Shown: positions 21,833-42,172 of the stretch, in pieces
Layout of the letters: every line of letters starts with the position of its first letter
Position numbering within the stretch: the stretch's first letter is position 1
Assembly: GCA_964465205.1 (NCBI GenBank)
Contig: CAYXJO010000008.1
Location: 2,164 to 66,163 of the forward strand
Length of the DNA stretch: 64,000 bases
Direction of reading: 5' to 3'
Source: an uncultured Gammaproteobacteria bacterium
GTDB taxonomy: Bacteria; Patescibacteriota; Patescibacteriia; Magasanikbacterales; GWA2-37-8
Notes under the pieces: model-generated
Databases searched by the model: none
What the model was told of the DNA's origin: nothing
Seen by the model: only the letters and a program-made list of their open reading frames with translations
Translations under genes and position numbers: made by a program

Positions 21833-21841
21833 TGTGGATAA
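21833..21841. promoter_or_regulatory. DnaA box (TGTGGATAA = TTATCCACA, perfect)
   Basis: Exact match to the 9-mer consensus. Confidence 0.5.
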
Positions 21842-21965
21842 GCCCCAAATCCCAACACTTAAATTCCTAAATTTATTCTAGCTTTCAACTACAAAAAACG
21901 GTTATTAAATAGTTGTGTTTTACAAACACACAACCCGCTTCAAACTGTTTATGAACAAAATCATT

Positions 21966-21981
21966 TGTTTCACGTGAAACA
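21966..21981. promoter_or_regulatory. parS centromere-like site, perfect 16-bp palindrome TGTTTCACGTGAAACA
   Basis: Exact match to the canonical ParB/Spo0J parS consensus tGTTTCACGTGAAACa. Confidence 0.8.
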
Positions 21982-21999
21982 TAATGCCCAAAAATATAA

Positions 22000-22010
22000 C
22001 ACGTGAAACA
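22000..22010. promoter_or_regulatory. parS half-site (CACGTGAAACA)
   Basis: Right half perfect, left half diverged. Confidence 0.4.
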
Positions 22011-22144
22011 TAAGAACTGGGTAGTTAAATAACGACCCGAAACGATTTCTCCATAACTATACAATTTTAGAACACACTAATACAAACACAGCTAAGAGCC
22101 ACAAACTTATCAACCACAACTCCAAATGAAGCTGGCTTGACTTT

Positions 22145-22160
22145 TGTTTCCCGTGAAACA
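22145..22160. promoter_or_regulatory. parS-like site TGTTTCCCGTGAAACA (1 mismatch)
   Basis: 15/16 match to the parS consensus. Confidence 0.65.
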
Positions 22161-22420
22161 CAACACAAACAAAATTAAGTGTCGACGGGGACTATAGTTT
22201 CATAAAACAAACTTTTATAACTTAGAACACAACCAACCTAAACCAACGTCGTATCGCATGATGTATATAATAGATTAACCGTAAAATCACTTTTGCCACC
22301 CTTGACATACTAAATAAACAAACGATCACACATAGCATATCGTTTACGGCCTAGCCTACACAGTAACCAAAAAAACAATTTATTATGTATTTTCTACATA
22401 CACACATATATTTTTGACAA

Positions 22421-22436
22421 TGTTTCACAGGAAACA
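22421..22436. promoter_or_regulatory. parS-like site TGTTTCACAGGAAACA (2 central mismatches)
   Basis: 14/16 match. Confidence 0.45.
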
Positions 22437-22475
22437 TCTCGTATAACTAGCAAAATATCATGTATTATGCTCGTA

Positions 22476-22538
22476 ATTTGTATACACTAGTCTATACAAA
22501 CTCACAAATCCACTGATTTATGCACAGTTTTATCCACA
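22476..22538. promoter_or_regulatory. 26-bp palindromic element aTTTGTATAcactagtcTATACAAAC followed by DnaA boxes TTATGCACA (22518-22526) and TTATCCACA (22530-22538)
   Basis: 9-bp inverted arms with an 8-bp spacer. The same element recurs twice near 42 kb with the spacer inverted. Confidence 0.6.
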
Positions 22539-22694
22539 GGGCAATATAATAAAATTATCACCATAATAACTGTTGTTTGGGGTAATGACCGTCGCACAGC
22601 TGTTTCAAACGAATAAGAGCCAACGATGCCTTTTGAGAGTATAATCCTGGTCAACAATATCAATCTATGGCTAAAATTTAGAGTTTTTAAGGAT

Positions 22695-22715
22695 TAAAAA
22701 AGGGCCTTTCGGCCC
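22695..22715 (-). terminator. Rho-independent terminator (GGGCC-gaaa-GGCCC + T-run on minus strand)
   Basis: Read directly, downstream of the 141-aa minus-strand ORF. Confidence 0.65.
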
Positions 22716-22778
22716 AAAAGTGTTTGCTAGAAACAAGTCAAAGCAACAAATTACAAAAAGTGTCTTAAAGCAATAGTC

Positions 22779-23204: not shown

Positions 23205-23302
23205 GACACCACCTCCTTATTGTTAGTGTTATAGCACTTGAAAGATCGTATTATAAAATCTATCACCACTAGTGAATCATGTCAAGATAGACTAAACACA
23301 TG

Positions 23303-25177: not shown

Positions 25178-27196
25178 TTGTTTCTCTCACTCAATTTGAG
25201 TATGACCACTACCATTGTGGCACTTCTAGCGCTTCTACCGGCGGTCTTGGCTATCGCCTACGGTGTCGCGCTTATCGTTTGGATCAATCGTCAGCCTACT
25301 GGCGACGAACGTATGCAGTCTATCGCGCGCGCCATACAAGAAGGCGCGAAGGCTTACCTAGCTCGTCAATACAAAACAGTAGCTTGGGTAGCCGGTATAA
25401 TTTTTATTATTATCGGATTGGCAGTAGATTGGTTCACTGCACTAGGGTTCGTGGTGGGCGCGATTTTGTCCGCCCTTGCCGGTATTATTGGCATGAACAT
25501 TTCCGTACGCGCCAACTTGCGCACTGCTGAAGCTGCCAAGCAAGGTATAGTCAAAGCGCTTACTGTTGCCGTACGCGGTGGTTCGATTACCGGTTTGTTT
25601 GTGGCCGGTCTTGGTCTTTTGGGTGTATCTGGTTTTTATTTAATTTTCAATGACATTTCCGCTTTGGTTGGCTTGGCTTTCGGCGGATCTCTCATTTCAA
25701 TTTTTGCTCGTATTGGTGGTGGTATATTTACCAAGGCCGCCGATGTGGGTGCCGACCTCGTCGGTAAGGTAGAAAAAGGTATCCCCGAAGACGATCCACG
25801 CAACCCGGCGGTGATCGCCGATAATGTCGGTGATAATGTTGGTGATTGTGCCGGTATGGCCGCAGATTTATTCGAGACCTATGCGGTGACTGCTATCGCC
25901 GCAATGGTGTTGGGTGATTTGCTGTTCCCGGGCAATGATCGTGTGGTGGTGTATCCTTTGATACTCGGTGGTGTCTCTATCATCGCTTCTATCATCGGTA
26001 CCTTTGCTATTCGTTTGGGCAAAAGTCAAAACGTCATGAATGCTTTGTACAAAGGTTTGGCCGCTGCTGGCGTCCTCGCTCTCATCGCATTTTATTTTGT
26101 CACCAATTGGCTCATGAAAAATATCGACGGTGTATTAACTTGGAAAATTTTCCTCACCGCCGTTATTGGTTTGGCCATGACCGCGCTTATGGTCTGGCTC
26201 ACCGAATATTACACTGCCACCAAATATAATCCGGTAAAAAATCTGGCCAAAGCTTCTGAGACTGGACACGGCACCAATGTGATTGCTGGTTTGGCTTTGT
26301 CTATGCGCTCTACCGCATTGCCGGTGCTCGCTATTGTGGCAGCTATTTTGGGTGCTTATTGGCTCGCTGGTATCTATGGTGTGGCTATTGCCGCCATGAG
26401 CATGCTTTCGCTCACCGGTATTATCGTAACCATTGATGCATACGGTCCTATTACCGACAACGCTGGTGGTATCGCCGAAATGGCGGAACTACCAGAAAGC
26501 GTACGCGCCATTACTGATCCGCTCGATGCTGTAGGCAACACTACCAAAGCTGTAACCAAAGGTTACGCGATCGCTTCTGCCGGTTTGGCTTCGCTCGTAT
26601 TATTCGCTGATTATACTCACAAGCTACCTTCTACCGTACAATTTCTAATCAACGATCCGAAAGTCTTGGCTGGATTGTTTATCGGTGGTCTGTTGCCATA
26701 TTTATTCGGATCCATGCTTATGGAATCTGTAGGTAAAGTAGCTGGCAAAGTAGTAGAAGAAGTACGTCGTCAGTTCCGTGAAATTCCAGGAATCATGGAA
26801 CACACCAACAAACCGGACTATGGTAAAGCCGTAGACATCGTCACCAAAGGCGCTATTGGTCAAATGATTGTGCCGGCTTTGATTCCGGTGGCGGCGCCGA
26901 TTTTGGTTGGGTTCATCTTGGGCGTAGAAGCTCTAGGCGGTGTGCTACTTGGCACGATTATCACCGGCCTCTTCGTCGCGATTTCCATGACCACTGGTGG
27001 TGGCGCTTGGGACAACGCGAAAAAACATATTGAAATGGGAAACTACGGTGGTAAAGGATCCTTTGCTCATCAAGCCGCTGTCACTGGCGACACCGTGGGC
27101 GATCCATACAAAGATACTGCTGGTCCAGCTGTAAACCCAATGATCAAAGTAGCCAACATTGTGGCGCTACTCATCGTGGGACTCTTGATTAAATAA
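25178..27196 (+). CDS. hppA: Membrane-bound H+/Na+-translocating pyrophosphatase
   Basis: [19 protein letters not shown] and [21 protein letters not shown] signature motifs, about 15 TM helices. Start may be the MTTTIVALL Met at about 25202. Confidence 0.9.
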
Positions 27197-27213
27197 TTCA
27201 AACAAAAAATATA

Positions 27214-27246
27214 AAAAAGACGCTCGGCAACGGGTGTCTTTTTTGT
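27214..27246 (+). terminator. Rho-independent terminator after hppA
   Basis: AGACGC-tcggcaacgg-GTGTCT + TTTTTTG. Confidence 0.6.
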
Positions 27247-27344
27247 AACATTCTAAAAAACACTAAAGAACCAAACTTTCGTCAAGGGTTGACAACCGCC
27301 AAAAAATAATATAAAATTCCGCATACTTATTAAATAAAATCAAT

Positions 27345-28706
27345 ATGAAACACGAACTCAAAAAACTAGACAAGTCGATGGTGGAAATCAAAATCACTGT
27401 CCTGCCCGCCGAATATCAAAAAGATTTGGAGGCGGCCGCAGTGCGCCTATCCGAACGCGCCGCCATCAAAGGCTTTCGTCCGGGCAAGGCCCCATACAAC
27501 GCTGTCAAAGAACAGCTTGGTGAAGTAAAAATTTTCGAAGAAGCCCTACAAACAATCGTTGAGATGAATTATTTCCGCGCCGTCCAAGCCGAAAAAATAG
27601 AAACAATCGGACAACCGGAAATCACTATTGAAAAAATGGCCCCAAACAATGAATTTGTGTTCATTGCCAAAGTAGCTCTGTTGCCAAAAATAGAGTTAGC
27701 CGACATCACCAAAATCAAAGTGGAACGCAAGGCCAAAGAAATTACCGACAAAGAGGTAGATAATGTGGCAAATGATTTGCGCAAAATGCAGACCAAAGAA
27801 ACCATTAAGAACGGACAAGCAACCAAAGACGACAAGGTGGTAATAGACATGGACATGTTTGTAAACAATGTTCCAATGGAAGGCGGCCAAGCCAAAGGTT
27901 ACCAAGTCTATCTGAACGAACCACATTATGTAGAGGGTTTAGCCGATCAATTGGTGGGTCTGAAAAAAGATGACACCAAGGACTTTACACTCAAATTCCC
28001 CAAAGATCATTACGATAAAAACTATGCTGGTCGCGATGTGGATTTCAAAGTCAAGGTCCACGACGTGTTTGAATTACAAGCCCAGGCGTTTGATGATACC
28101 TTTGCCAAATCTCTGGGGCAAGAAAGTGCGGAAAAACTAAAGGGTCTGTTGCGCGACAATTTAATTAAAGAAAGCGAACACAAAGAGGACCAGCGCGTTG
28201 AGGGTGAAATCTTGGAAAAATTAATTGCCGAAAGTAAGTTTGAAGAGATCCCGGAAGTATTAATCAATTCGGAAAAACAAAAAATGTTCTACGAATTGAA
28301 GCACGACCTGGAACATCGCGGGATCGCTTTCGAAAAATATTTGAAAGATATCAAAAAAACTGAAGAACAAATTTACAACGACTTCACCGAAAACGCCACC
28401 AAACGTGCCAAGGCGGCGCTGGTCTCGCGCCAGGTGGCCAAAGACAATAACATTGAAATTTCCGACGAGGAATTGAAAAAAGAAATTGACTTAATCAAAA
28501 CCATGTATGATGGTGAAGAATTAAAACGCGTAGAAGAAAACATCAAACGCCAAGAAGTAAAAGACACCATCGCTATTTCAATACAAAATCGCAAAGTGAT
28601 GGATTGGCTCAAAGAAAAAATCTTGGGCGAGAAACCAAAAACCGAAGACAAGCATGAACACGGACACAGCCATGGCGCACCCGGACACAAGTGTGATCAC
28701 TGTTAA
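27345..28706 (+). CDS. tig: Trigger factor with unusual His/Cys-rich C-terminal tail (HEHGHSHGAPGHKCDHC)
   Basis: N-terminal ribosome-binding region AAIKGFRPGKAPYNAVKEQLG, then PPIase and C-terminal arm regions. Confidence 0.85.
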   Translation: MKHELKKLDKSMVEIKITVLPAEYQKDLEAAAVRLSERAAIKGFRPGKAPYNAVKEQLGEVKIFEEALQTIVEMNYFRAVQAEKIETIGQPEITIEKMAPNNEFVFIAKVALLPKIELADITKIKVERKAKEITDKEVDNVANDLRKMQTKETIKNGQATKDDKVVIDMDMFVNNVPMEGGQAKGYQVYLNEPHYVEGLADQLVGLKKDDTKDFTLKFPKDHYDKNYAGRDVDFKVKVHDVFELQAQAFDDTFAKSLGQESAEKLKGLLRDNLIKESEHKEDQRVEGEILEKLIAESKFEEIPEVLINSEKQKMFYELKHDLEHRGIAFEKYLKDIKKTEEQIYNDFTENATKRAKAALVSRQVAKDNNIEISDEELKKEIDLIKTMYDGEELKRVEENIKRQEVKDTIAISIQNRKVMDWLKEKILGEKPKTEDKHEHGHSHGAPGHKCDHC

Positions 28707-28725
28707 AAAAGTTTGAATCAAATAT

Positions 28726-28758
28726 AAAAATCCTGTATGATAAGTGCAGGATTTTTAA
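28726..28758 (+). terminator. Rho-independent terminator after tig
   Basis: ATCCTG-tatgataagtg-CAGGAT + TTTTTAATT. Confidence 0.65.
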
Positions 28759-28767
28759 TTATTATTT

Positions 28768-29598
28768 ATGTATTTCGGCGCACATGTTTCGATTGCGGGC
28801 GGCATCCAAAATGCTCCGCTCAATGCGGCTGCAATTGGTTGCGAAGTTTTTCAATTTTTTACTCGCTCCCCACAAGGTGGTTGGGTGCCTCCGTGTGATG
28901 CGGATGTGGCGAAAATTTTTAAATTCAACTGTAAACAAACCAATCAAAAGGAATGGGTGGTACACACGCCTTATTTTATCAACTTTGCTTCGGCCAATCC
29001 GCGTATTTTCCACGCTTCTATTTCGGTGGTGCGTCAAGAACTAGACCGCGCCTCAATGCTGGGCGCAAAATATCTGATGACACATCTTGGTAGTTACAAA
29101 GATCTTGGCCACGATAGCGGACTGAAACAAGTTATTGCCGGACTTGCCGAAATGCTCAAGAATTACAAAGGCGAAACACAATTCCTCATAGAAATCTCTG
29201 CCGGTGCCGGAGAAATTATTGGTGATACATTTGAAGAAATTGCCGAAATTATTTTCGCGCCAAAATTAAAAAAATACGACATCGGCGTGTGTTATGACAC
29301 CCAACACGGATTCGCGAGTGGGTATGATGTGCGCACGCCCGCGGCGGTGGATACCACTTTCAAACAGTTTGATAAAACCATCGGGCTGGGTAAATTGAAA
29401 ATGTCACATTGCAATGATTCGCTCACCGAACTCGGATCGCGTAAAGATCGCCACACCGGTATCGGCGAAGGAAAAATCGGCCGAGCTGGATTTGAGGCGC
29501 TCATCAAAAATCCAAAATTAGAAAAAATAAATTGGTATCTGGAAACGCCAGATGATATGGCCAAAGATTTAAAAATTTTGAAAAAAATTCGGGGATAA
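28768..29598 (+). CDS. nfo: Endonuclease IV (AP endonuclease family 2)
   Basis: MYFGAHVSIAGG start, TIM-barrel AP-endonuclease-2 His/Asp/Glu ligand pattern. The length of 276 aa is typical of endonuclease IV. Confidence 0.8.
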   Translation: MYFGAHVSIAGGIQNAPLNAAAIGCEVFQFFTRSPQGGWVPPCDADVAKIFKFNCKQTNQKEWVVHTPYFINFASANPRIFHASISVVRQELDRASMLGAKYLMTHLGSYKDLGHDSGLKQVIAGLAEMLKNYKGETQFLIEISAGAGEIIGDTFEEIAEIIFAPKLKKYDIGVCYDTQHGFASGYDVRTPAAVDTTFKQFDKTIGLGKLKMSHCNDSLTELGSRKDRHTGIGEGKIGRAGFEALIKNPKLEKINWYLETPDDMAKDLKILKKIRG

Positions 29599-29599
29599 T

Positions 29600-29833
29600 A
29601 TGATAACGAAAGTTCGCGTTCTCCCACGCTCGTCGCGCAATGAAGTAGTTGGTGAAATGGCCGACGGCACTCTCAAAGTAAAACTCACCGCGCCACCGGT
29701 GGATGGCCGTGCCAACATAGCGCTGGTGGATCTGCTATCCAATTATTTTACGGTCAAAAAAATACATATAAAAATTATATCCGGCTTGACGAGCAAAAAT
29801 AAAATTGTAAAAATTGAGGAGCACCACACTTGA
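29600..29833 (+). CDS. YggU/DUF167 family protein
   Basis: LKVKLTAPPVDGRANIALVDLLSNYF...ISGLTSKNKIV matches the YggU pattern. Start overlaps the nfo stop. Confidence 0.75.
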   Translation: MITKVRVLPRSSRNEVVGEMADGTLKVKLTAPPVDGRANIALVDLLSNYFTVKKIHIKIISGLTSKNKIVKIEEHHT

Positions 29834-29897
29834 CACGCGTCCATACCAACCATAAAATACATACCAGTTACTTTCACCCTCAACCCGGGAGGCAAAC

Positions 29898-30311
29898 ATG
29901 CGCACCAAAACACGCGACAAAAGATCGGTATTAATGATTAAATTACTAAATCATTTGACCAGCAAAGGTGCCATGCTCAATATTACATCAACGCAAACAC
30001 GTAACTTTTTGGTTTCTCAACTTTATTATCACCAACAAATTCACGCTGACACAAAACCAGAAGAAGTGATTGCGCTATCAACACAAATACTGTGGGATAA
30101 CCAAATCAACCCGTTTTGTGTGTTTGACCGTGACAGGGGCATCTCGGAGTATCAGCCAGACATACTAATTTGGGATATTGTTACAAACCAACTAAGAGAA
30201 GCCGGGGTCACACCGGAGCGCATAACCGAGCTCCTCGCAGAGGGAAAACAGGTTTGGGATGAAGGCACCACAATCGATCAAATGTGTGGACGTAGAATAG
30301 ACGGTGCTTAG
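29898..30311 (+). CDS. Hypothetical protein (137 aa)
   Basis: SD GGGAGG upstream. Weak terminator-like hairpin downstream at about 30370-30410. Confidence 0.6.
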
Positions 30312-30661
30312 GGCAAATCCACCCCACCCCTATTCCAGGGGTTACACCGCAACACCCTCCAAACGGCCTTTATGCCTCCGCGCATTAGGCCGTGTTTTTT
30401 TATAGATAAATACGAATATTCGCTACAACTAGGATAAAACCGGCAATACCCGTGCGGAAAACGATGCTTAAAAAAACCATGATCTGGCGAAATGGTTCTT
30501 TGATATAACCTAATCATCCACAAAACTGGATAGCGAAAATAATAAATTGGTGTTTTCATAATAAAACCGGATAAAATTTCTTTTAAGCGGGTTTGGGCCA
30601 TTAGGCTCACCTCGAGCCCTCGCGGGCGAGAAAATCGAAAAAGATGTTTTGTCCGGTTCAA
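30308..30661 (-). CDS. yidD: Membrane protein insertion efficiency factor YidD (alternative start at 30559 gives the canonical 83 aa)
   Basis: [10 protein letters not shown]...[15 protein letters not shown]...CNPW motifs. Immediately downstream of rnpA. Confidence 0.85.
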
Positions 30662-30664
30662 ATA

Positions 30665-31057
30665 TTAGACCAAAGCTTTTATTTTCCGCAACAATGTTTC
30701 CACTTCTTGGCTAATTTCAGCGTAATTTTTGTCCTTAATACTTGGCTTTGGCACAAACATCAGAAAAAAACCACCTTGCAGACGACCGGCTTTGATTAGA
30801 AGCCTCACCACCTCACGTAACTGTCTACGCACTCGGTTGCGCACCACTGCGCGCTTATCCAACTTCAAACCCACAGAAAAGGCTAATTTCAGCTGTTTTT
30901 TAAAACTTTCTGGGTCATCTTTTTTGGGGAAAAACTGTTGATTTTTGGCCAAACTCAACCATTTGATGGTCAAAAAACTACCCCCAATCCATTGACCGTG
31001 GTTTACTATCAAGTCAAAGTCACGTTTTTTTCTTAATCGGTTGTCGTTTTGAAGCAT
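30665..31057 (-). CDS. rnpA: RNase P protein component
   Basis: Basic protein with RNRVRRQLRE motif, in the rpmH-rnpA-yidD synteny. Confidence 0.85.
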   Translation of the reverse strand: MLQNDNRLRKKRDFDLIVNHGQWIGGSFLTIKWLSLAKNQQFFPKKDDPESFKKQLKLAFSVGLKLDKRAVVRNRVRRQLREVVRLLIKAGRLQGGFFLMFVPKPSIKDKNYAEISQEVETLLRKIKALV

Positions 31058-31382: not shown

Positions 31383-31391
31383 ATATATCAA

Positions 31392-33288: not shown

Positions 33289-34410
33289 ATGAAATTCTCA
33301 TGCACAAAGGAGAAATTGGCTAAAGCCCTCTCCCTTACAATTGGGGTGGCAAACAAAAGTGTGAACTTACCAATTTTGGGTAATGTACTAATCCGAGCCG
33401 AAATTCAAAAAGTTGAAATTGTCGCCAACAATTTAGAGATGGCTATCATTGCCAATCTTCCGGCCAAAACCGAAACCGCCGGATCGTTTACTGTCCCGGC
33501 CCGCACCCTCGCGGACTTTGTAGCCCTCCTACCAGATGAAAAAATTGAGATAGAGTTAAAAGAAAACGAACTTGCTGTCACCTGTGGTAAATCATCGACC
33601 AAAATTAAAGGGTCACCAGCCGAAGAATTTCCAATGGTGCCAAAACTAGAAGAAGGTAAAGGTTTTACTATCAAAACCGACGATTTTAAAAGAGGTTTGT
33701 CACAAGTTTTGCCGGCAGTAGCCCGCAACGACATCCGCCCCGAATTATCCGGCATTTGTTTTAATTTTAACAGCGAGTATTTTGCTGGTTTGGTCATGGC
33801 CGCCACCGACAGCTATCGCTTAGCAGAAAAACGTATCAAATTGTCCCAGGGCGCAGAACAAGTGCGCATCATAGTGCCCGGGCGTACCGCGCAAGAAATA
33901 GGGCATGTTTTGGCCCAAGCAGATGGTGACCAGAGTGAGGGTGTGCGTGTGTTAATCGGTGAAAACCAAGTTGCGGTAAATTATGACAGCGTTCAACTTG
34001 TTTCTCGTTTGGTGGACGGTCAATATCCGGACTATACCCAAATTATTCCCAAAGACTTCAAAACCACCGCAGTGTTCCCAACTAACAACATGATGAAAGA
34101 AATAAAAGCCGCTAGTTTGTTTACGACCAGCGGTGTGAACGCGGTATCGTTGGATTTGAATGTTTCACAGGGCACCTTGGGGGTGTCATCCACCTCCACC
34201 CAAACCGGTGAGTACACATCAGAGATTAACGCCGAGCTTACTGGCGAAGAAAATTCTATTCTACTCAACCACCGCTATGTGATTGATGGTCTCAACAATA
34301 TCACTACCGACATTACCACCCTCAAAGTAATCAATGGCGATAGTCCGTGTTTGTTTGCTCCACAAGGAGATGAAACATATTTGTATATTGTCATGCCCAT
34401 CAGACAATAA
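33289..34410 (+). CDS. dnaN: DNA polymerase III beta sliding clamp
   Basis: Three-domain clamp, typical N-terminus MKFSCTKEKLAKAL. Follows dnaA. Confidence 0.9.
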   Translation: MKFSCTKEKLAKALSLTIGVANKSVNLPILGNVLIRAEIQKVEIVANNLEMAIIANLPAKTETAGSFTVPARTLADFVALLPDEKIEIELKENELAVTCGKSSTKIKGSPAEEFPMVPKLEEGKGFTIKTDDFKRGLSQVLPAVARNDIRPELSGICFNFNSEYFAGLVMAATDSYRLAEKRIKLSQGAEQVRIIVPGRTAQEIGHVLAQADGDQSEGVRVLIGENQVAVNYDSVQLVSRLVDGQYPDYTQIIPKDFKTTAVFPTNNMMKEIKAASLFTTSGVNAVSLDLNVSQGTLGVSSTSTQTGEYTSEINAELTGEENSILLNHRYVIDGLNNITTDITTLKVINGDSPCLFAPQGDETYLYIVMPIRQ

Positions 34411-34421
34411 TTTTGTATAAT

Positions 34422-34449
34422 TAAAAAACACCTTGCGAGGTGTTTTTTA
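34422..34449. terminator. Bidirectional terminator between dnaN and the PBP gene (CACCT-tgcg-AGGTG flanked by A/T runs)
   Basis: Read directly. Confidence 0.7.
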
Positions 34450-34461
34450 ATTGGTTGTATT

Positions 34462-37323
34462 TTATTTTACCACCACTTCCATGGTGCGCTCGCTTGTGCC
34501 GCCAGACTTTCCGGTTGTTATTGTTTTGAGTGTGTATGTCCCCGCACCCGGATAGTTTTTCCAGATAAAATTTAGTTTTCCGTTTTCGTCCAATTTTTCA
34601 TCTTGTGGTCGGAAGGTATAAATTAGTTTGTTGACCCCACTGCCGATTAAAAACACTTTGATATCTTTGCAGTCCAAATAGCGATACGGCGTAATGTACA
34701 TAGTACGCGGGAAATCATTTTTAGTGATACTTATCATCATACCATCTGCCCAATCAGCACTGGCCGCGTCGTCTGGTACATCAAAGTTTATTTTAATACT
34801 GGCTTCACCGCGTATTCCTTGTTCGTCTTCGGCTTGCGCCAACAAAACATGTTCGCCGCGGTGAAAATTGTTGGCAACCACACTCAAATCAAATGGGTAA
34901 GCGGCGGATACGCCTATGCTTTTTCCATCCAAATAATAATACACCTTTGATATTCCGCGTGGAGCAGTAGCACGCACCGAAATATCCAATTGTTTGGAGT
35001 TTAATTTTATACCATCGGTAGGCGACACAAACTCTACTTGTGGAATTTGTTCTGAAGAAAAAGTAGAGTCATCCAACGCCGCGGGAGGCTCCTGTAGGGA
35101 CATTATGTGTCCGGCCAGGTTCAACCGCGCCACCCAGCTTTTTAAAGCTGTCTCCCAGTTGTCGTATTGCGGATCGTCTGATGGGTTGGTTGGCATCTCT
35201 CCTCTGGGGTCACTACGTTTCACATAAAAAAGAATATCATGAGGCGGTAAATATGTTCGTTCTTCTTGTACCCCAGGTGGAGTGGACGAAGTGGCGATTT
35301 TTCCGTTTAATTTGTTGATCATTAGTTTTATGCCACCATCAGATCCACGCAGTACCGGTTTGGTGGCGTCGTTGGCTGGTGGGGTAGGAAACTGTTCAGC
35401 CTGTGTGCCTTTGAGTGATTCACTCATAAAACGATTCCAGATTTTGCCAGCCAATGTGTTGCCACCACCTTTCATAGGAGCGGGGTTGGTGTTGCCCACC
35501 CACACACCCGCAGCTAGTGATGGTGTGTATCCCATGGTCCAAGCATCCTTGTTGTTGTTGGTGGTACCGGTTTTGGCGGCTACTGGTCTATCTGACAGTG
35601 CCAGAGTACTACCCCGCCCGAAAATATAGGCGCGAGCGGCATCGTCGGACAAAACATTACTAATAGTGGCCGCGAGCTCTGGTTTGATGGCCTCCGTACC
35701 ATCGCCGGGCTTCCATTCGTACAACACATCGTTGGTAGAGTTGGTTACTTTTAAAAGCGACACTGGTTCGTGGTATAAACCATTATTGGCTAAGGTCGCA
35801 TAAGCATTGGTGTGTTCGAGCAAGTTTACTTCCGAACCACCCAACACCATACTTAGTCCGGCATCTTCTTTTAGAGTGGTGTAACCAAATCTTTTGGCAA
35901 AATCAATTGTTTCTTTTACGCCGACCAGATACAGTGCTTTCACAGCTGGAATGTTGAGTGAACCTTGTAAGGCGGTGCGAATAGTTACTAAACCACGTTC
36001 TTTGCCATCATAATTTTTGGGAGTGTAATCTCCGCCGGCACGCATATCAAAGTTAGTGGTGACATCATATAATACTGTTTCGGGTGTATAGCCTTTTTCA
36101 AAAGCGGCGGTGTAAACAAAGGGTTTGAATGATGACCCGGGCTGGCGCAAACCAAGCACCGCAACATTGAATTGGCCATCAATTTCATCGTTATTGAAGT
36201 CGCGTGAACCCACCATAGAAAGTACCTGGGCAGTTTTGGGGTCAATGGCTACCAATGCCGCATTGTTGGCATTCGCTTCTTTGGCGAACTTGTCTCCCAG
36301 TTCTTTCACTGCTGTCTCAGCAATTTTTTGTTTGTCATAATCCAAAGTGGTGATCACTTTTAGTCCACCAGTATCAATGGTTTTTTCACCAAATTGATCA
36401 GCCAGCAATTGTTTCACATACAAAACAAAGTGCGGTGCGTCCATAATTCCACCACTACGATAAATACGCAAGGCTTCGTTTTGGGCGGTGGTTTTTTCGT
36501 CCACCGTGATGATGCCTTGGTTGGCCATGAGGGCGAGAACAGTGTCGCGACGCATTCGTAGGGTATCCAAATTGTTTAGATACCTGGTTGGAGCCTGAAT
36601 TAAGGCGGCGAGAGCGGCCGACTCACCCAAACTTAGATCCTTGGCGTTTTTATGAAAATAACTTTGTGCCGCCGCTTCTACACCGTAGTTGGTTGATCCG
36701 TATGGCACCTCATTCAAATACATTTTTAAAATATCGTCTTTGGTGTATTTTTTTTCGAGACGCAACGCCAAAATCGCTTCTTTGATTTTGCGGAAATAGC
36801 TATGCTCGTCACCGATGATGGTGTTCTTGATGAGCTGTTGGGTAATAGTCGAGGCGCCACCGCCCCCCGATCGTCTGCCCAAAATATTATTGATACCTGC
36901 ACGTAAAATACTGAGCGGGCTCACTCCTTTGTGATTATAGAAATTTTTATCTTCTATTGCCACTACAGCCTTGGGGACCCATGGTGACATTTGGTCTAGA
37001 CCAATTAGTGTGCGTTTTTTGTCTTGATAAATTTCGTAAAGTAAGTGAGTACCAGTACGATCGTAAATTTTGGTACTTTGAGCCACCTGTCGGTCCACTA
37101 GTTTATTTGGGTCGGGTAAGTCGCGACTAATGAGTGCTACTGCGATTGTTCCACCCACAAAACCGGTCGCACCCAACGCTAAAAGTGTCAGGATTATCGG
37201 CTTGACCCAACTTCTTTTGAATTTGAAACGAAAACGCGGCCGGTGTGGGCGCGGTGGAGTGGGGTGTTGCTCCGGGTTGTGGTCAATTTTACCGTACGTA
37301 CGAGATAGATGTGGTATGGGCAT
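34462..37323 (-). CDS. Class A penicillin-binding protein (transglycosylase + transpeptidase) with about 250-aa C-terminal extension
   Basis: N-terminal TM. GT51 motifs EDKNFYNHKG and RKIKE. TPase motifs SGSSFKP, SLN and KTGTT. Confidence 0.9.
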   Translation of the reverse strand: MPIPHLSRTYGKIDHNPEQHPTPPRPHRPRFRFKFKRSWVKPIILTLLALGATGFVGGTIAVALISRDLPDPNKLVDRQVAQSTKIYDRTGTHLLYEIYQDKKRTLIGLDQMSPWVPKAVVAIEDKNFYNHKGVSPLSILRAGINNILGRRSGGGGASTITQQLIKNTIIGDEHSYFRKIKEAILALRLEKKYTKDDILKMYLNEVPYGSTNYGVEAAAQSYFHKNAKDLSLGESAALAALIQAPTRYLNNLDTLRMRRDTVLALMANQGIITVDEKTTAQNEALRIYRSGGIMDAPHFVLYVKQLLADQFGEKTIDTGGLKVITTLDYDKQKIAETAVKELGDKFAKEANANNAALVAIDPKTAQVLSMVGSRDFNNDEIDGQFNVAVLGLRQPGSSFKPFVYTAAFEKGYTPETVLYDVTTNFDMRAGGDYTPKNYDGKERGLVTIRTALQGSLNIPAVKALYLVGVKETIDFAKRFGYTTLKEDAGLSMVLGGSEVNLLEHTNAYATLANNGLYHEPVSLLKVTNSTNDVLYEWKPGDGTEAIKPELAATISNVLSDDAARAYIFGRGSTLALSDRPVAAKTGTTNNNKDAWTMGYTPSLAAGVWVGNTNPAPMKGGGNTLAGKIWNRFMSESLKGTQAEQFPTPPANDATKPVLRGSDGGIKLMINKLNGKIATSSTPPGVQEERTYLPPHDILFYVKRSDPRGEMPTNPSDDPQYDNWETALKSWVARLNLAGHIMSLQEPPAALDDSTFSSEQIPQVEFVSPTDGIKLNSKQLDISVRATAPRGISKVYYYLDGKSIGVSAAYPFDLSVVANNFHRGEHVLLAQAEDEQGIRGEASIKINFDVPDDAASADWADGMMISITKNDFPRTMYITPYRYLDCKDIKVFLIGSGVNKLIYTFRPQDEKLDENGKLNFIWKNYPGAGTYTLKTITTGKSGGTSERTMEVVVK

Positions 37324-37445
37324 ATGTTTGTGTCAGTATTATACCTCAACTTTTTATACTTGACAAAAATACCATTTTGTGGTATCCTATTGTGTTATAA
37401 AGCGAGAGTATCTTGTAATAAGGTACTCTTTTAAATTAACCCATT

Positions 37446-38015
37446 ATGCGCTTTGTTAAGCCAAAATTAGACCAAAAAATTATGAAGAAAACCTTACAAA
37501 TTATCGCCTTTTTGGCTGTAATTAGCCAAATGCTTGTGCCCTTCGGGGCTTGGGCAGCTGGTGATAGTGTTTTGGCTACTATTAGCCAAAATGAGCCTCA
37601 CTATGATGATTTGACACTAAAAGAGGCCCCGGGAGGCCGCTTGGTGATGCCGCACATGGCTGTGGCCAACGCCGATCAACCGGACCGTGTGGTAAAAGCG
37701 GTTATTACCGCCTATACTTCTACGCCGGATCAGACTGATGACAGTCCGGACATCGCGGCTTGGGGTGACCACGTGTATGATGGTATGATTGCCGCCAACT
37801 GGTTGCCACGTGGTACTAAAGTGAAGATTCCGTCTTTGTTTGGTGATAAAATCTTTACCGTGGCCGACCGCATGAACCCTCGTTATGGTTTTGGTCGTAT
37901 CGACATTTGGTTTGATGCCACTAAATCCGAAGCCCGCAAGTTCGGTGTAAAACGTGCTGATCTGGAAATCTATTACCCAGAAAAGCCGAATACAGAATTG
38001 GCGATGGCTAAATAA
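37446..38015 (+). CDS. 3D-domain (MltA/YuiC-like) secreted protein
   Basis: Signal peptide, then the AYTS...DDSP...G...VAAD 3D-domain pattern. Start may be the MKKTLQIIAFL Met at about 37482. Confidence 0.7.
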   Translation: MRFVKPKLDQKIMKKTLQIIAFLAVISQMLVPFGAWAAGDSVLATISQNEPHYDDLTLKEAPGGRLVMPHMAVANADQPDRVVKAVITAYTSTPDQTDDSPDIAAWGDHVYDGMIAANWLPRGTKVKIPSLFGDKIFTVADRMNPRYGFGRIDIWFDATKSEARKFGVKRADLEIYYPEKPNTELAMAK

Positions 38016-38030
38016 TACTATAAATAAAAC

Positions 38031-38064
38031 AAAAACACCCTGGCTCAAGTCGGGGTGTTTTTAA
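38031..38064. terminator. Bidirectional terminator (ACACCC-tggctcaagtc-GGGTGT + T-run)
   Basis: Read directly. Confidence 0.65.
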
Positions 38065-38071
38065 TTGGGCT

Positions 38072-39580
38072 TTATTCCTTCCCCCGATATTGTATCGCCT
38101 CGGCAACATGCGTGAGCGCGATATTTTCTTCACCAGCGAGATCGGCAATGGTACGTGCCACTTTTAATATACGATGATACGCACGTGCGGATAGGTGCAT
38201 TTGGGCGACGGCGTTACGCATTAGTTCCATTGAGGCAGCATCCAGTTTACAAAATTCTTTCATTTGCGCATTACCCATTTCACTGTTCGTAAAAATATTG
38301 TGCTCAACAAAACGACGTGATTGTATGGCGCGCGCTTCTTCTACGCGTGTGCGGATTTTTTCGGACGATTCCGCCAGTTCGGTCGCTGATAATTTTTCGA
38401 ATTCCACGCGCGGCACTTCGACATGCAGGTCAATCCGGTCGAGCAGGGGTCCGCTAATTTTTTTCTGATAACGTAAAATTTGTTGCATGGTACAGATACA
38501 TTGTTTGTCGCTGTCGCCACTGAATCCGCACGGGCATGGATTTTGTGAGACCACCAGAATGAAGCGTGCCGGGAAGGTGGTGTTACCGCTCGCGCGTGCC
38601 ACGTTCACAATACCATCCTCGAGCGGTTGGCGCAGCGCTTCGACTACGAAACGAGAAAATTCCGGGAACTCGTCTAAGAACAATACGCCGCGGTGCGCCA
38701 AAGAAATTTCACCTGGTCGGGGGATGCGACCACCTCCAACCAGCGCCGCCGCGCTACCAGTGTGGTGCGGTGCACGAAATGGTCGCGTGCGGAATAGACT
38801 GTTTTGCAATAATCCAGCCACAGAATAAATTTTGGTTACTTCCAATATTTCTTCAGTACTAAGTGGTGGCAGAATCGAAGGCAGGGTGCGCGCGAGTAGT
38901 GTCTTGCCAGATCCGGGCGGTCCGGACATGGCGATATTGTGTCCGCCAGCCGCCGCTATTTCAAGTGCGCGTTTGGCAAATTCTTGGCCCTTGATCATAC
39001 CCATGTCCAAATCATAGCTGGGGTCGACAGTATCATTAGTAGTGGGTTTTATGTGAGGTGTTATGAGAGCAACTCCGGCTAGATGAGCCATGATTTGTTT
39101 TAGACTCTCCACTGGATAAATATTTAGTCCAGTGATCAGCGCTGCTTCGTCGGCGTTCGCGCTAGGTACAAAGATTTCTTTTAGCCCTCTTTTTTTAGCG
39201 AAGATTGCAAGCGAAAGAACCCCATTCACTCGGCGTACGCTTCCATCAAGTGCTAATTCGCCAATTATTAGCGCGCGGTCTATGTGTATGTCTAAGTGAT
39301 TGCTAGCTGCGATTAGCCCCACCGCCATGGGCAGATCATAAATTGGTCCTTCTTTATGTAAATCAGCTGGCGCCAGATTGATCAAAATTCGGAAATTGAA
39401 TGGATAATCAAAACCCGAATTCTTGAGCGCACTGTGAATGCGGTCGCGTGCTTCTTGAATAGCTGTATCAGCTAGACCGACCACATTGAAGGCGGTCTGT
39501 CCGCGATTTACATCCACTTCAACATCGACCGGAACACAATCGAGGCCGACTGGGGCGGCGGAGTTTAGTTTAAAAAACAT
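38072..39580 (-). CDS. comM: Mg-chelatase-like AAA+ protein YifB/ComM
   Basis: Walker A MSGPPGSGKT, sensor motifs, and the C-terminal Mg_chelatase_C region. Confidence 0.85.
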   Translation of the reverse strand: MFFKLNSAAPVGLDCVPVDVEVDVNRGQTAFNVVGLADTAIQEARDRIHSALKNSGFDYPFNFRILINLAPADLHKEGPIYDLPMAVGLIAASNHLDIHIDRALIIGELALDGSVRRVNGVLSLAIFAKKRGLKEIFVPSANADEAALITGLNIYPVESLKQIMAHLAGVALITPHIKPTTNDTVDPSYDLDMGMIKGQEFAKRALEIAAAGGHNIAMSGPPGSGKTLLARTLPSILPPLSTEEILEVTKIYSVAGLLQNSLFRTRPFRAPHHTGSAAALVGGGRIPRPGEISLAHRGVLFLDEFPEFSRFVVEALRQPLEDGIVNVARASGNTTFPARFILVVSQNPCPCGFSGDSDKQCICTMQQILRYQKKISGPLLDRIDLHVEVPRVEFEKLSATELAESSEKIRTRVEEARAIQSRRFVEHNIFTNSEMGNAQMKEFCKLDAASMELMRNAVAQMHLSARAYHRILKVARTIADLAGEENIALTHVAEAIQYRGKE

Positions 39581-39676
39581 AAATCATCAAGTGATAATGA
39601 GCATTGGGAACAGAAGGGGTTTTTTGAGACGAAGTGATGAAGGATCTAGAAGGTATCCGTCGTGTCTAGGGTCGAA

Positions 39677-40444
39677 CTAATTAGCCCCCTCTTGTTGGCA
39701 TCTGGTTATTTTAACCTCTTTTGTCGCATCCGAACAATGGAAGTAACTTCCCGCAGAGGTTGCCACAGGGGTAATATAGGCTTTATTGGGACGGTATTTA
39801 GAGGGTGTTTCATATGGTACTTCCAGCTCAACGTTGCCATTTTGATTTTGCGTGCTATCAACAATGCCCGGCCGTAAAGATGTTATAAAATGTTTTATTT
39901 CATCGGTTGCCATGACGATTTTAAATTTAACGTTTGAACCAGAGTCACAAGCTTCCAGGGATTTAATTTTTGCATCAACAACGCAATTGGGCACCGTCTT
40001 TAAAAAATTATCTCCAAATATTTCTTCAGGCTCAATATTGTAAAGTGTGAAAAATATATTTTTATAACTTGTGCTATTTGTTGGTCCGCAGATGTGTATC
40101 TTCATTTTAATGTCTGATTGTTGGTAAATACCACCCCAGTCGCCTCCGCATAAGGTCTTATCGCTCTCTCCCAAGTTTTCAGTTTTGTTCCAGCCGCCGT
40201 TTTTTAATTGGTTCTTATAATATTCATGGACATTGCCACTGTGTGTTTCGTATGTTATGTAGGTGGCCCCGGAGTCATCCTTTTTCATCCCTATTAACAT
40301 AGAACCAGGAAACAGGAAAGATTGATCTCTGTTTGGACGACTATCGTTTTTGTTGTAGTTTTTACAGTTTATCAATATCAAAATGAATACAGCAGCTAGA
40401 ATGAATATGCCGATTATTGCAGAGCCGGCCACCTTTTTAGTCAT
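39677..40444 (-). CDS. Hypothetical membrane-anchored/secreted protein (255 aa)
   Basis: N-terminal TM AIIGIFILAAVFILILI, Cys-containing ectodomain. Confidence 0.6.
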   Translation of the reverse strand: MTKKVAGSAIIGIFILAAVFILILINCKNYNKNDSRPNRDQSFLFPGSMLIGMKKDDSGATYITYETHSGNVHEYYKNQLKNGGWNKTENLGESDKTLCGGDWGGIYQQSDIKMKIHICGPTNSTSYKNIFFTLYNIEPEEIFGDNFLKTVPNCVVDAKIKSLEACDSGSNVKFKIVMATDEIKHFITSLRPGIVDSTQNQNGNVELEVPYETPSKYRPNKAYITPVATSAGSYFHCSDATKEVKITRCQQEGAN

Positions 40445-40461
40445 ATTATTTGATTTAGTAT

Positions 40462-40920
40462 TTAGATTTTATAAACACCCCTTTTAATAATCTGGTACAA
40501 GTATAACACAAATCCGACGACGATTAAAACATCGGCGATATTGATAATAGAAGTAAGTACGAGCAAGTAGTCAATTGTGTGGCCGTGAATTATTCGGTCG
40601 ATAAAATTGGAAATCGCGCCGGTGAAAATAAACGACAAAGCAAAAATTTTCCAATGATTATTTACATCACTTTGTCCCACCAGCATTAGATAAATCACAA
40701 AAGCGAGGATTGCGAGAGTTAGCGCCAGAGTCAGGGTGTTTGGGACCGGAATACCAAAACCAATGCCTGGGTTGAGAAATGGTTGCCAACCAAAAAAGTG
40801 ACCGGCCAAATTGGGGCGACTCCAACTGTGGGTGGCTAAGTGTTTTAGCCATCTATCTAAAAATAAAAAAAGTCCGTTTACTACGATCGCCGTAAGCAAA
40901 AGGACTTTTTTGTTTGGCAT
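40462..40920 (-). CDS. lspA: Lipoprotein signal peptidase II
   Basis: Four TM helices with NPGIGFG and FIDRIIHGHTIDYL / NIADVLI motifs. Confidence 0.85.
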   Translation of the reverse strand: MPNKKVLLLTAIVVNGLFLFLDRWLKHLATHSWSRPNLAGHFFGWQPFLNPGIGFGIPVPNTLTLALTLAILAFVIYLMLVGQSDVNNHWKIFALSFIFTGAISNFIDRIIHGHTIDYLLVLTSIINIADVLIVVGFVLYLYQIIKRGVYKI

Positions 40921-40921
40921 A

Positions 40922-41317
40922 TTACAGTTCTTGAGTGATGGTTTTTTTGCATTCTACACAAGCCGAAGAAGTCGGTCGTGCTATTAGCCTTTTCTCTTCA
41001 ATTGGTTTTTTGCAATACTTGCAAATTCCGTAAGTACCCTTTTCGATATTGGTGAGCGCCTTGTTTACATCGCGCAAAGTTTTTTCCAAGTTGCCTTCAA
41101 TTGATAAGTTAGTCGCATACTCGGCCACCTCGTTGGCGTTTTCGTCTTCTTTATCGCCATAATCAGGAAACTTGCTATCATAATCATCGGTCACGTGAGG
41201 ATTTTTCTCCGTGAACAGTCCGAGCTCTTTTTCTAGGCGTTCTTTTTCTTGAATTAAACCATTTTTGATTTTTGCTAGTGCTTCTGCAGAAACAGCAGCC
41301 TGTGTTTGTTTAGCCAT
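40922..41317 (-). CDS. DksA/TraR-family C4 zinc-finger protein
   Basis: Coiled-coil N-terminus. C-terminal CKYCKKPI...CVEC zinc finger. Confidence 0.75.
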   Translation of the reverse strand: MAKQTQAAVSAEALAKIKNGLIQEKERLEKELGLFTEKNPHVTDDYDSKFPDYGDKEDENANEVAEYATNLSIEGNLEKTLRDVNKALTNIEKGTYGICKYCKKPIEEKRLIARPTSSACVECKKTITQEL

Positions 41318-41420
41318 AACAGCTAATTAGTTGGATAAATTATGTCTATAGTGTAGCAAATTTTGCTTAGATTAGTCAAGCCAAGCCCGGGCGGGCCCAC
41401 CTGATTAATTCTGGGTAAAC

Positions 41421-41476
41421 AAAAAAGACGAGTTGTACCTCATGAAATATAATTTTAAAGGTTGCTCGTCTTTTTT
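41421..41476. terminator. Long bidirectional hairpin AAAAAAGACGAG-(32 nt)-CTCGTCTTTTTT
   Basis: 12-bp perfect arms that double as A/T tails. Confidence 0.55.
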
Positions 41477-41486
41477 CACTAAATAA

Positions 41487-41663
41487 GACGAGGGTTTTGC
41501 CCCAGCGAGGCTGGAGCTAGACGATGTCGCTTAAGTAGTGTTGGATACACCTACCGCTTAGTGGCAGGGCCTCGGCGCCAGCCGTCTCATACGATCGGGC
41601 TAGTAAGAAGTGAGCTAGGCTCACAAGGAGGATGCCGTGAAAGAAGTTAAGCGAATCCGCCTC
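41487..41663. ncRNA. GC-rich putative structured ncRNA of unknown class (strand undetermined)
   Basis: About 180-nt island of roughly 60% GC in AT-rich intergenic DNA. Stops in all six frames. Internal complementary segments (CCAGCGAGGCTGG / GGCGCCAGCC). Bounded by the hairpin above and a T-run at 41664-41680. Confidence 0.4.
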
Positions 41664-41859
41664 TATTTCATTTTTTAATTTGATAGTGGTGGACTAACTT
41701 CTTTTTATAGTATTCCGCTTATTAGTTTTCGGAATGATGAAGCAGTGATTGTGTATATACTTGTGTAAAGAGCCCGCTTTCCAAATTACGTCATAGTTTT
41801 TACCTCACATTATTAAGTATAGCACAAAATAGAAGTTTTGTCAAGGGGGTGGCATTTTT

Positions 41860-41908
41860 GGCTAATTTTAGACAAAAAATCGGTAAAAAGGCTAATTTTA
41901 GACAAAAA
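41860..41908. repeat. Direct repeat GGCTAATTTTAGACAAAAA x2, 30-bp period
   Basis: Copies at 41860-41879 and 41890-41908, immediately upstream of the first 26-bp palindrome. Confidence 0.7.
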
Positions 41909-41934
41909 GTTTGTATAGACTAGTGTATACAAAC
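41909..41934. promoter_or_regulatory. 26-bp palindromic element GTTTGTATAgactagtgTATACAAAC (copy 1)
   Basis: 9-bp perfect inverted arms, 8-bp spacer. Confidence 0.65.
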
Positions 41935-41973
41935 TTTATTTAGCTGAGCTTTGCGGAAAAAGTGTGTATGATA

Positions 41974-42172
41974 TGTGGAAAACCCATATATTTTGATCAT
42001 AGTTATCCACATTAAATGTAGTTTATCCCCAGAGTTATCCACAGTTTGTATAGACTAGTGTATACAAACTTATGCACAATTGAGAATTTTATCTCGTTTT
42101 GTAGAGATATAAGCCAAAAATCAGAGAGTGTGTGCTGATAATATGCAGGAATCTCGATTACTTGTGGATAAG
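41974..42172. promoter_or_regulatory. DnaA-box cluster (candidate oriC or DnaA-titration locus) containing palindrome copy 2 (42044-42069)
   Basis: Perfect TTATCCACA at 42003-42011 and 42035-42043, and (reverse) at 42164-42172. One-mismatch boxes at 41974-41982, 42023-42031 and 42070-42078 (TTATGCACA). AT-rich ATATATTTTGATCAT. Confidence 0.55.

Follow-up and report, generated by a model that had tools for sequence, protein, structure and literature searches.

Palindrome-linked DnaA-box clusters near a probable oriC in Candidatus Magasanikbacteria: candidate origin-proximal control modules conserved among relatives

The stretch of DNA analysed here (64 kb; "the window") is the dnaA region of a chromosome of Candidatus Magasanikbacteria (Patescibacteria), an uncultivated group; the best match to its DnaA among GTDB species representatives was 74% identical, and nearly all of the 80 matches came from metagenome-assembled genomes of Magasanikbacteria/Patescibacteria. 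An identical DnaA was not on record, and an identical trigger factor occurred on a 1.6-kb Logan contig only. Two non-coding regions, locus A (~990 bp) and locus B (~920 bp), flank dnaA and carry DnaA boxes together with copies of a single palindrome (PAL). These loci are read here, with somewhat better than even confidence, as conserved origin-proximal DnaA-binding modules that lie outside the origin of replication (oriC) and would be modulated by a protein binding to PAL. This reading is carried by the position of the loci relative to the switch in GC skew, by their conserved architecture, and by a PAL copy over the promoter of a DNA-binding gene in related genomes.

GC skew, named in an initial annotation of the window as a means of deciding whether locus A, locus B or both are oriC, was calculated for the window and for more than 40 relatives. 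Total GC skew had a strong negative sign as far as ~24 kb and a strong positive one beyond ~41 kb, with a flat part between; the ambiguity over 24-41 kb was settled by using the skew at third codon positions (GC3 skew), which was determined per gene, read on the plus strand and takes out the effect of the coding strand. Plus-strand GC3 skew was negative for all genes from 1.2 to 34.4 kb, whatever their orientation, and positive for all genes from 34.46 kb, with the cumulative minimum at 34480. The interval from locus A to the end of dnaA gave -0.22 (z = -7.9) and that from dnaN to locus B +0.17 (z = +5.4); because the signs are opposite, both intervals appear to be replicated from a point between them. 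A dual origin, or a frequently flipping segment, was rejected as the cause of the flat total skew, since GC3 skew is strongly signed there and switches only once. In the relatives the GC3 minimum fell at the 3' end of dnaA, in the dnaA-dnaN spacer or in dnaN, wherever PAL lay, and it stayed at dnaA/dnaN both where locus B was 8-10 kb downstream and where it was as far as 10 kb upstream. Between dnaN and PAL-B, GC3 skew was positive in 13 of 13 relatives; with B upstream of dnaA, the segment from PAL-B to dnaA was negative in three of four (L074, z = -5.7; L071, z = -7.9; L076, z = -2.1; L-numbers denote loci of related genomes or metagenome contigs).

The dnaA-dnaN spacer ends in a 40-bp stretch of 90% AT directly before dnaN. 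Its counterparts in 76 relatives had medians of 274 bp in length, three boxes with at most one mismatch and seven with at most two (background 0.15 and 1.4), and 90% AT; the maximum AT content per 40 bp was 0.80 in loci A and B as against 0.90 in the spacer. Owing to the GC3 switch, the degenerate box cluster and the AT stretch, this spacer, and not locus A or B, is the probable oriC. Locus A is then placed 10.5 kb into the left replichore and locus B 8.6 kb into the right one. Both contain box clusters and neither coincides with the skew switch; locus B, moreover, is not stably linked to dnaA/dnaN and moves with dksA. A literature search returned nothing on origins in Magasanikbacteria.

DnaA boxes were scored as perfect when they read TTATCCACA. 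Boxes with at most one mismatch numbered 33 in the whole window (19.0 ± 4.5 expected); the perfect ones number seven, five of them held by locus A or B and none by the dnaA-dnaN spacer. Locus B has six boxes with at most one mismatch in 200 bp, three of them perfect (background 0.15 per 289 bp), and locus A has two plus one nearby. The tandem boxes of locus A begin 17 and 29 bp after PAL-A. In locus B the perfect box at 42035 abuts PAL-B2, and a box likewise stands next to the second palindrome in most relatives. Perfect boxes in A and B versus degenerate boxes in oriC suggest that the former would be the sites that DnaA fills first. Matches to the parS consensus TGTTNCACGTGAAACA are clustered near the origin in locus A, as is typical of a parS centromere. 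Both open reading frames (ORFs) at 17906-19508 were considered as neighbouring ParA/ParB genes and rejected, as they are without such domains.

PAL was searched with the pattern GTTTGTATA-N8-TATACAAAC, which gave exactly three matches in the window, with no weaker copies, where 0.00 were expected from 100 shuffles of the window. The initial annotation was borne out in its inventory of both loci and in all coordinates of the two box clusters and their palindromes, including the box at 21833, the tandem boxes of locus A, the parS cluster, and the six boxes, two palindromes and twofold direct repeat of locus B, none of which would be expected by chance; only the first base of PAL-A had to be corrected from G to A. 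Its spacers, gACTAGTg in locus B and cACTAGTc in locus A, are reverse complements of each other as it had said, and a repeat search paired 22477-22502 with 41908-41933 and with 42043-42068 as inverted 26-nt repeats of 100% complementarity.

From 181 non-redundant copies a 24-bp motif was obtained, TTTGTATA-S-ACTAGT-S-TATACAAA, in which the core GTATA-N8-TATAC is essentially invariant. Positions 9/16 vary freely (C.G 62, G.G 38, C.C 37 and G.C 13 of 181), and all relative orientations are found among neighbouring copies. Since the 26-mer is otherwise a near-perfect palindrome, its "orientation" is given by these two g/c bases only, which, judged by the copies compared, are degenerate half-site positions and not a directional core. 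The claim that loci A and B are inverted relative to each other was not supported by this comparison; nor are the loci as wholes inverted copies, because the PAL-adjacent boxes are on the plus strand in both.

The symmetric variant ATAGTATAC..GTATACTAT is present in all copies of L046, L047 and L186, as expected for a trans-acting dimer that changes its specificity but not for a hairpin, where change could be confined to one copy. The frequency of non-complementary G.G and C.C pairs argues against selection for a hairpin or cruciform. Copies are paired or in triplets, spaced by 70-135 bp, and stand at a constrained distance from DnaA boxes; the motif does not match IHF or Fis sites, and the dnaA-dnaN spacer has no copy of it. 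PAL behaves as the binding site of a putative dimeric trans-acting factor, in line with the initial annotation. Two other identities were discarded: a LexA/SOS box, as no lexA or SOS genes flank PAL, and binding by neighbouring small ORFs (67-aa RHH-like, 141-aa and 189-aa), which have no Pfam domains.

A second word, TTAGCCAA/TTGGCTAA, was enriched within 70 bp of PAL (1.6/kb against a background of 0.14/kb; ~11-fold, p ~ 1e-24). It accompanies PAL in all three types of locus described below, frequently as GGCTAA-N2-4-TTAGCC, and occurs in the window at 41856-41915, 37510-37591 and 42238-42261. It may be the site of a second protein or a second contact of the same protein.

Conservation was assessed in GTDB genomes and by a metagenome scan for the core GTATANACTAGTNTATAC, which found at least 120 loci. 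Among the matches listed, 83 carry the full PAL; the other 37 have the core only and resemble chance matches in unrelated DNA. The 83 comprise 14 loci of type B, 14 of type A, 21 of type C and 26 unclassified, with a further eight short contigs that have a box abutting PAL and were counted toward type B, so that 57 of the 83 sort into three defined contexts. The unclassified loci form small groups only, one beside MazEF and others beside uncharacterised proteins, and no fourth context was accepted. The scatter of the 26-mer as a REP-like repeat, which the initial annotation had named as a refutation, was not seen; PAL occurs in a few specific contexts.

Type B, as seen in the GTDB loci, consists of a PAL pair 100-135 bp apart with two to three plus-strand boxes between, the last abutting the second palindrome. 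In 26 of the 28 GTDB genomes with enough sequence, the pair lies 430-900 bp upstream of, and divergent from, a dksA-like/lspA(-comM) operon; the genes on its far side are not conserved. The module tracks this operon: it is found right after dnaN (L003, L053), in front of yidD-rnpA-dnaA (L044) or 7-10 kb upstream of dnaA (L071, L074, L076), and it is within 1.5-10 kb of dnaA across genomes.

Type A was defined by a parS site less than 700 bp from PAL. Its layout is a TPR gene, three parS sites, PAL ~55 bp past the last of these, and up to three tandem plus-strand boxes, followed in relatives by a terminator and convergent tRNA genes; the order PAL, box, 3 bp, perfect box (at about +29 to +31) is conserved. 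TPR homologues, with the module upstream of them, flank parS and PAL in L084, L145, L151, L165, L169, L173, L161, L128, L122 and L187; L122 and L128 have the same layout with weaker parS. Several of the 14 type A loci stand beside genes of the dnaA neighbourhood. In L187 both modules, A and B, are found to one side of dnaA at a distance of 6.5 kb from each other, and their symmetric placement in the window is therefore incidental: dnaA does lie about midway in the window, as had been noted, but relatives do not share this symmetry. In sum, strong boxes in non-coding DNA outside oriC, conservation and proximity to the origin were found together at both loci, as is to be expected of DnaA-box clusters distinct from oriC.

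Type C, which is absent from the window, led to a candidate for the PAL-binding protein. Here two to three PALs separate a gene for a protein of 110-140 aa from a divergent operon for an extracytoplasmic function (ECF) sigma factor, a DUF5667 protein and a protein of ~1250 aa. The small protein has an HTH_17 (excisionase-family) domain (33 bits; cut-off 27), and its gene a promoter of the form TTGACA-17-TGnTATAaT. The third palindrome, PAL3, begins inside the -10 hexamer, spans the transcription start site (TSS) and leaves 1-5 nt to the start codon. This holds for nearly all of 20 type C loci that were inspected, L115 and the truncated L132 excepted, and also for L202, a locus retrieved through the protein. 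Since the loci fetched in that way (P0020, P0044; L202-L206) carry the same PALs, the link between PAL and HTH_17 is no artefact of locus retrieval. This layout points to an autorepressed regulator with auxiliary upstream operators, as judged from the genomes compared: the palindrome covers the promoter of a DNA-binding gene and is conserved across genomes with concerted change of its half-sites. The neighbourhood of five genes is itself conserved (e.g., L166 4519-12960; L202 3764-12241); the far side comprises the HTH_17 gene and a gene for a ~580-aa DUF11-like membrane protein, and the ~1250-aa protein has no Pfam domain.

The HTH_17 family comprises at least 1797 sequence clusters, with 65-90% identity across members and 46 invariant columns that include a C-terminal extension (KNKL..GIGQFV..WKIKNPLYSPNPK), and is annotated merely as "excisionase family DNA binding protein". 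A search of its sequence against the PDB gave nothing below E = 0.6. In an AlphaFold model (core pLDDT 77-90), the nearest folds found with Foldseek were mycobacteriophage Xis, BldC, RacA, the pSK1 Par centromere-binding domain and GlnR/MerR; for the group of BldC, RacA and Xis the probability was 1.0 and the target-normalised TM ~0.7, with weak E values (~0.01-0.15) and 20-26% identity. In L186, FGLNQQ replaces FGVNxQ; as this is a single variant locus, covariation of PAL variant and HTH_17 residue is anecdotal. That the HTH_17 protein binds PAL is somewhat more likely than not.

A structured RNA gene of its own lies between locus B and dksA (Table 1). It has its own promoter and an intrinsic terminator, a minimum free energy z score of -4.25 and equivalents of 317-421 nt in 20 genomes (in L003-L077). 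It contains a covarying helix; RNAalifold recovered one helix, because the alignment was poor. No match to Rfam 15 was obtained for it even at E ≤ 10, and Rfam searches of both loci, at gathering score and at E ≤ 10, gave tRNAs and chance hairpins only. RNase P, tmRNA and signal recognition particle RNA were rejected as identities for lack of Rfam/ARAGORN matches and of signature motifs. A promoter was picked in 28 of the 29 dksA-upstream regions scanned, and in 25 of them its distance to dksA was 369-911 nt; a separate promoter, downstream of the RNA gene, serves dksA itself.

The mechanism proposed would be as follows. Each module combines tandem strong boxes at fixed spacing with one or two copies of PAL, the putative operator of a clade-specific dimeric protein, most likely the ~110-140 aa HTH_17 (excisionase/MerR-like winged-helix) protein, which would be encoded elsewhere in the genome and autorepressed. 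DnaA would occupy the perfect boxes of A and B ahead of the weak boxes of oriC. As they lie 1.5-10 kb from oriC, A and B would be duplicated right after initiation and could then serve as sinks for DnaA or as sites of regulation, a reasoning also put forward for the DnaA-box clusters of Bacillus subtilis (PMC3245932) and for datA of Escherichia coli. The protein that recognises PAL would bind beside the boxes and, in B, may loop out the 100-135 bp between the two palindromes that hold the boxes, thereby controlling DnaA occupancy. The complex in B, just upstream of the promoter of the ~390-nt RNA, could also set transcription of this RNA; that in A would sit on the parS centromere. Carried further, HTH_17 and PAL might form a Patescibacteria-specific control layer in which the protein, by occupying PAL or looping it at both DnaA sinks, gates the supply of DnaA to the weak boxes of oriC and couples initiation and segregation to the divergent ECF-sigma (envelope-stress) operon that it would also control, an extension that is speculative and rather doubtful.

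Several observations weigh against the proposed modules. The boxes of A follow PAL and read away from it, whereas those of B precede PAL-B2 and read towards it. About 26 of the 83 PAL-bearing metagenome loci among the matches listed fit no class, and L006 and L045 have the dksA-lspA operon with no recognisable PAL upstream; these two may represent natural loss or strong divergence of module B. The HTH_17 gene is outside the window and linked to A and B by the shared motif alone; one two-contig assembly has it at a great distance from dnaA, midway along the contig that lacks dnaA. The first palindrome abuts the -35 element of the RNA promoter in many relatives, where plain transcriptional control could suffice at B. 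The evidence is, finally, wholly comparative.

The main rival is pure transcriptional control, a possible but clearly less probable case in which PAL is an operator and DnaA co-regulates adjacent promoters, those of the ~390-nt RNA and of dksA-lspA at B and an unrecognised one at A, without any part in initiation. PAL3 over the HTH_17 promoter is what such a regulator would show, PAL-B1 is ~4 bp from the -35 element of the RNA promoter in nine relatives (L008, L016, L018, L022, L020, L025, L027, L031 and L066), and in the window a promoter-like TGCACA-18-TATAAT is overlapped by both locus A boxes. Type A boxes, however, run at once into a terminator and convergent tRNA genes, those of B are 100-230 bp upstream of the TSS and off the promoter, and both modules are consistently origin-proximal. 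Transcriptional control hence explains B well and A poorly, since A has no conserved downstream gene.

It is improbable that the PAL protein is instead a RacA/ParB-like organiser that bridges or anchors A, B and other sites of the origin domain, with the boxes incidental. RacA bound to DNA (5i44) and the pSK1 Par centromere-binding domain (8csh) are among the structural neighbours of the model, only ~55 bp separate PAL from the final parS site of type A loci, and its pairs and triplets at 70-135 bp would suit bridging; yet the Foldseek E values are weak, the fold also covers the transcription factors BldC, GlnR and MerR, type C is not origin-proximal, and the fixed spacing of PAL and boxes argues that the boxes belong to the unit.

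That A and/or B is a true or second origin, or that they are the distal parts of a split one, is very unlikely. The perfect-box clusters, parS at A, the distance of both from dnaA (~10 kb or less) and a total skew that is strongly signed only outside 24-41 kb had made this attractive, and the initial annotation had raised it; the z scores of opposite sign on the two intervals, the cumulative minimum, which the window and more than 40 relatives share at dnaA/dnaN even when B moves, the lower AT content and the travel of B with dksA rather than dnaA all speak against it. Least credible is inversion of the 19.4-kb A-B segment by site-specific or homologous crossover between the palindromes, as also suggested at first: perfect 26-bp inverted repeats at the segment ends, a 9-8-9 layout like that of tyrosine-recombinase core sites and the rearranged gene order around dnaA among relatives are outweighed by asymmetric positions that are not conserved (most copies being symmetric or randomly oriented), by the two B copies, which as direct repeats would delete the boxes on recombination, by the lack of a recombinase domain among the ORFs scanned (7.7-51.9 kb) and of hybrid junctions (parS-PAL-RNA/dksA) in about 200 related loci, by the nearest relatives, L095 at B and L148 at A, which retain the junctions of the window, and by rearrangement end points among genera that are unconnected to PAL.

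Positions of the features of both loci, and the order of the genes around them, are given in Table 1.

Table 1. Features of loci A and B, the probable oriC and neighbouring genes, from left to right in the window.
Feature	Position	Strand	Remarks
TPR membrane-protein gene	19483-21762	-	left of locus A; Pfam TPR repeats
Perfect DnaA box	21833-21841	-	left edge of locus A
parS cluster, locus A	21966-22436		
parS site	21966-21981		perfect, TGTTTCACGTGAAACA
parS site	21995-22010		weak (3 mismatches)
parS site	22145-22160		1 mismatch
parS site	22421-22436		2 mismatches
PAL-A	22476-22501		ATTTGTATACACTAGTCTATACAAAC; also written ATTTGTATAcACTAGTcTATACAAAC
Tandem DnaA boxes, locus A	22518-22538	+	TTATGCACA at 22518, TTATCCACA at 22530; 12 bp start to start
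141-aa ORF without assignment, tRNA-Ala, tRNA-Cys, LysM-M23		-	right of locus A
H+-PPase, tig, AP_endonuc_2, DUF167, 137-aa ORF without assignment		+	
yidD, rnpA		-	
Perfect DnaA box	31456-31464	+	rpmH-dnaA spacer, dnaA promoter region
dnaA	31594-33000	+	
dnaA-dnaN spacer, probable oriC	33001-33288		3 boxes with at most 1 mismatch, 9 with at most 2, none perfect
dnaN		+	
PBP1		-	right of dnaN
189-aa ORF without assignment		+	
comM-like, 255-aa ORF without assignment, lspA, dksA/traR-like		-	locus B next
dksA/traR-type zinc-finger gene	40922-41317	-	Pfam; first gene of dksA-lspA(-comM) operon
Stand-alone structured RNA gene, ~390 nt	41418-41809	-	unassigned family; between locus B and dksA
Sigma-70-type promoter, strong	41816-41844	-	TTGACA-17-TGcTATACT; 11/12 matches + TG; into RNA gene
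Direct repeat, 2 x 30 bp	41860-41915	+	GGCTAATTTTAGACAAAAA; units 41860-41885 / 41890-41915; carries TTAGCC/GGCTAA word
PAL-B1	41909-41934		exact GTTTGTATAGACTAGTGTATACAAAC
DnaA boxes between PAL-B1 and PAL-B2	41974-42043		41974 (-, 1 mismatch), 42003 (+), 42023 (+, 1 mismatch), 42035 (+)
PAL-B2	42044-42069		exact GTTTGTATAGACTAGTGTATACAAAC
DnaA box	42070-42078	+	TTATGCACA, 1 mismatch; abuts right end of PAL-B2
Perfect DnaA box	42163-42171	-	just upstream of rightward promoter-like site 42179-42207 (RHH-like/MazF cassette)
RHH-like ORF, short ORF, MazF toxin, more genes		+	right of locus B

The cassette directly right of locus B (42240-43105; RHH-like 67-aa ORF, short ORF and PemK/MazF toxin) is common only to the window and its closest relative, L095, and is not conserved beside B; MazEF adjoins a PAL in L087 and L112 also. 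It looks like a variable toxin-antitoxin insertion beside the module.

Other features of the window were recorded in passing. Going by GC3 skew, long stretches of genes in both replichores (25178-41317, 46214-54732 and 59226-63943) are transcribed head-on to replication; they include dnaA, dnaN, tig and the genes for H+-PPase and PBP1, so that there is little co-orientation bias near the origin in this genome. Two giant proteins of secreted or surface type are encoded on the minus strand at 7724-17919, one of 2055 aa with Peptidase_G2 and YadA-head motifs and one of 1305 aa with a PT-HINT/intein-like domain and CarboxypepD_reg repeats. The GC content rises to 0.53-0.55 at 47000-50000 (window mean ~0.44), over Amidohydro_2, a 280-aa ORF and a class II aminoacyl-tRNA synthetase, which may reflect foreign DNA or a gene-specific composition effect.

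The loci can be set beside several known systems. In Bacillus subtilis, DnaA binding outside oriC, at DnaA-box clusters (DBCs), has been proposed to restrain initiation (Okumura et al. 2012, PMC3245932). Like loci A and B, the DBCs are intergenic box clusters near but outside oriC; some of them serve in promoter control as well, and a genetic interaction with Spo0J/Soj-parS is described (PMC3245932). Unlike the DBCs, the loci described here are small (2-6 boxes) and built on PAL at fixed spacing, one of them is fused to a parS array, and they are known from sequence alone. In Escherichia coli, too, a site-specific cofactor bound beside the DnaA boxes is needed, IHF at datA and both IHF and Fis at DARS2. 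PAL, as a putative site-specific cofactor site beside boxes, is comparable to this arrangement; the differences are that the site is a 24-bp palindrome, that box number and orientation are other than in datA/DARS, and that oriC is 1.5-10 kb away instead of hundreds of kb. datA, DARS1 and DARS2 are described as non-coding DnaA-box clusters that modulate DnaA activity (PMC4585315, PMC5742627, PMC10950094). A datA/DARS-like role, the second option of the initial annotation, would agree with the perfect boxes outside oriC and with their conserved, origin-proximal position.

DnaA binds the parS centromere of Caulobacter crescentus (Mera et al. 2014, as cited in PMC11151105), where boxes in a centromere a few kb from the origin tie the initiator to segregation, as the boxes of locus A may do. 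The present case differs in phylum and in the coupling of the boxes to PAL, which recurs at a second, non-centromere locus. Sites interleaved with DnaA boxes are also characteristic of CtrA, Spo0A, MtrA, AdpA and HP1021. These proteins, response regulators for the most part, have transcriptional regulons of their own and act inside oriC. PAL, by contrast, is missing from the dnaA-dnaN spacer, and its candidate binder is an excisionase/MerR-like winged helix. Within that fold, BldC, RacA and Xis (PDB 6ama, 5i44 and 4j2n) are nearest by model: the inverted repeats bound by RacA cluster around the origin, and BldC, a transcription factor, binds direct repeats, whereas PAL is a palindrome. The HTH_17 candidate is set apart from all three by its additional invariant C-terminal segment and by the lack of a significant sequence match.

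Box clusters outside oriC, centromeric boxes and autoregulated palindromic operators are each of a known kind; the novelty lies in finding them combined in a fixed way in a candidate-phylum lineage, together with a concrete protein family as the likely cofactor. Replication control is almost wholly obscure in the candidate phyla radiation, whose members have tiny genomes and few regulators and are mostly uncultivated. With a 24-bp motif and a named candidate protein family, the question becomes one that can be addressed in vitro with synthetic DNA and recombinant protein, and no culture is required. Should the protein modulate DnaA occupancy, datA/DBC-like loci would have a cofactor of a new type; if the more speculative control layer were also true, a datA/DARS-type system with a dedicated cofactor would exist in episymbiotic bacteria of reduced genome. 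If the protein is only a transcription factor, PAL would define a small conserved regulon made up of the ECF sigma operon, the ~390-nt RNA and dksA-lspA.

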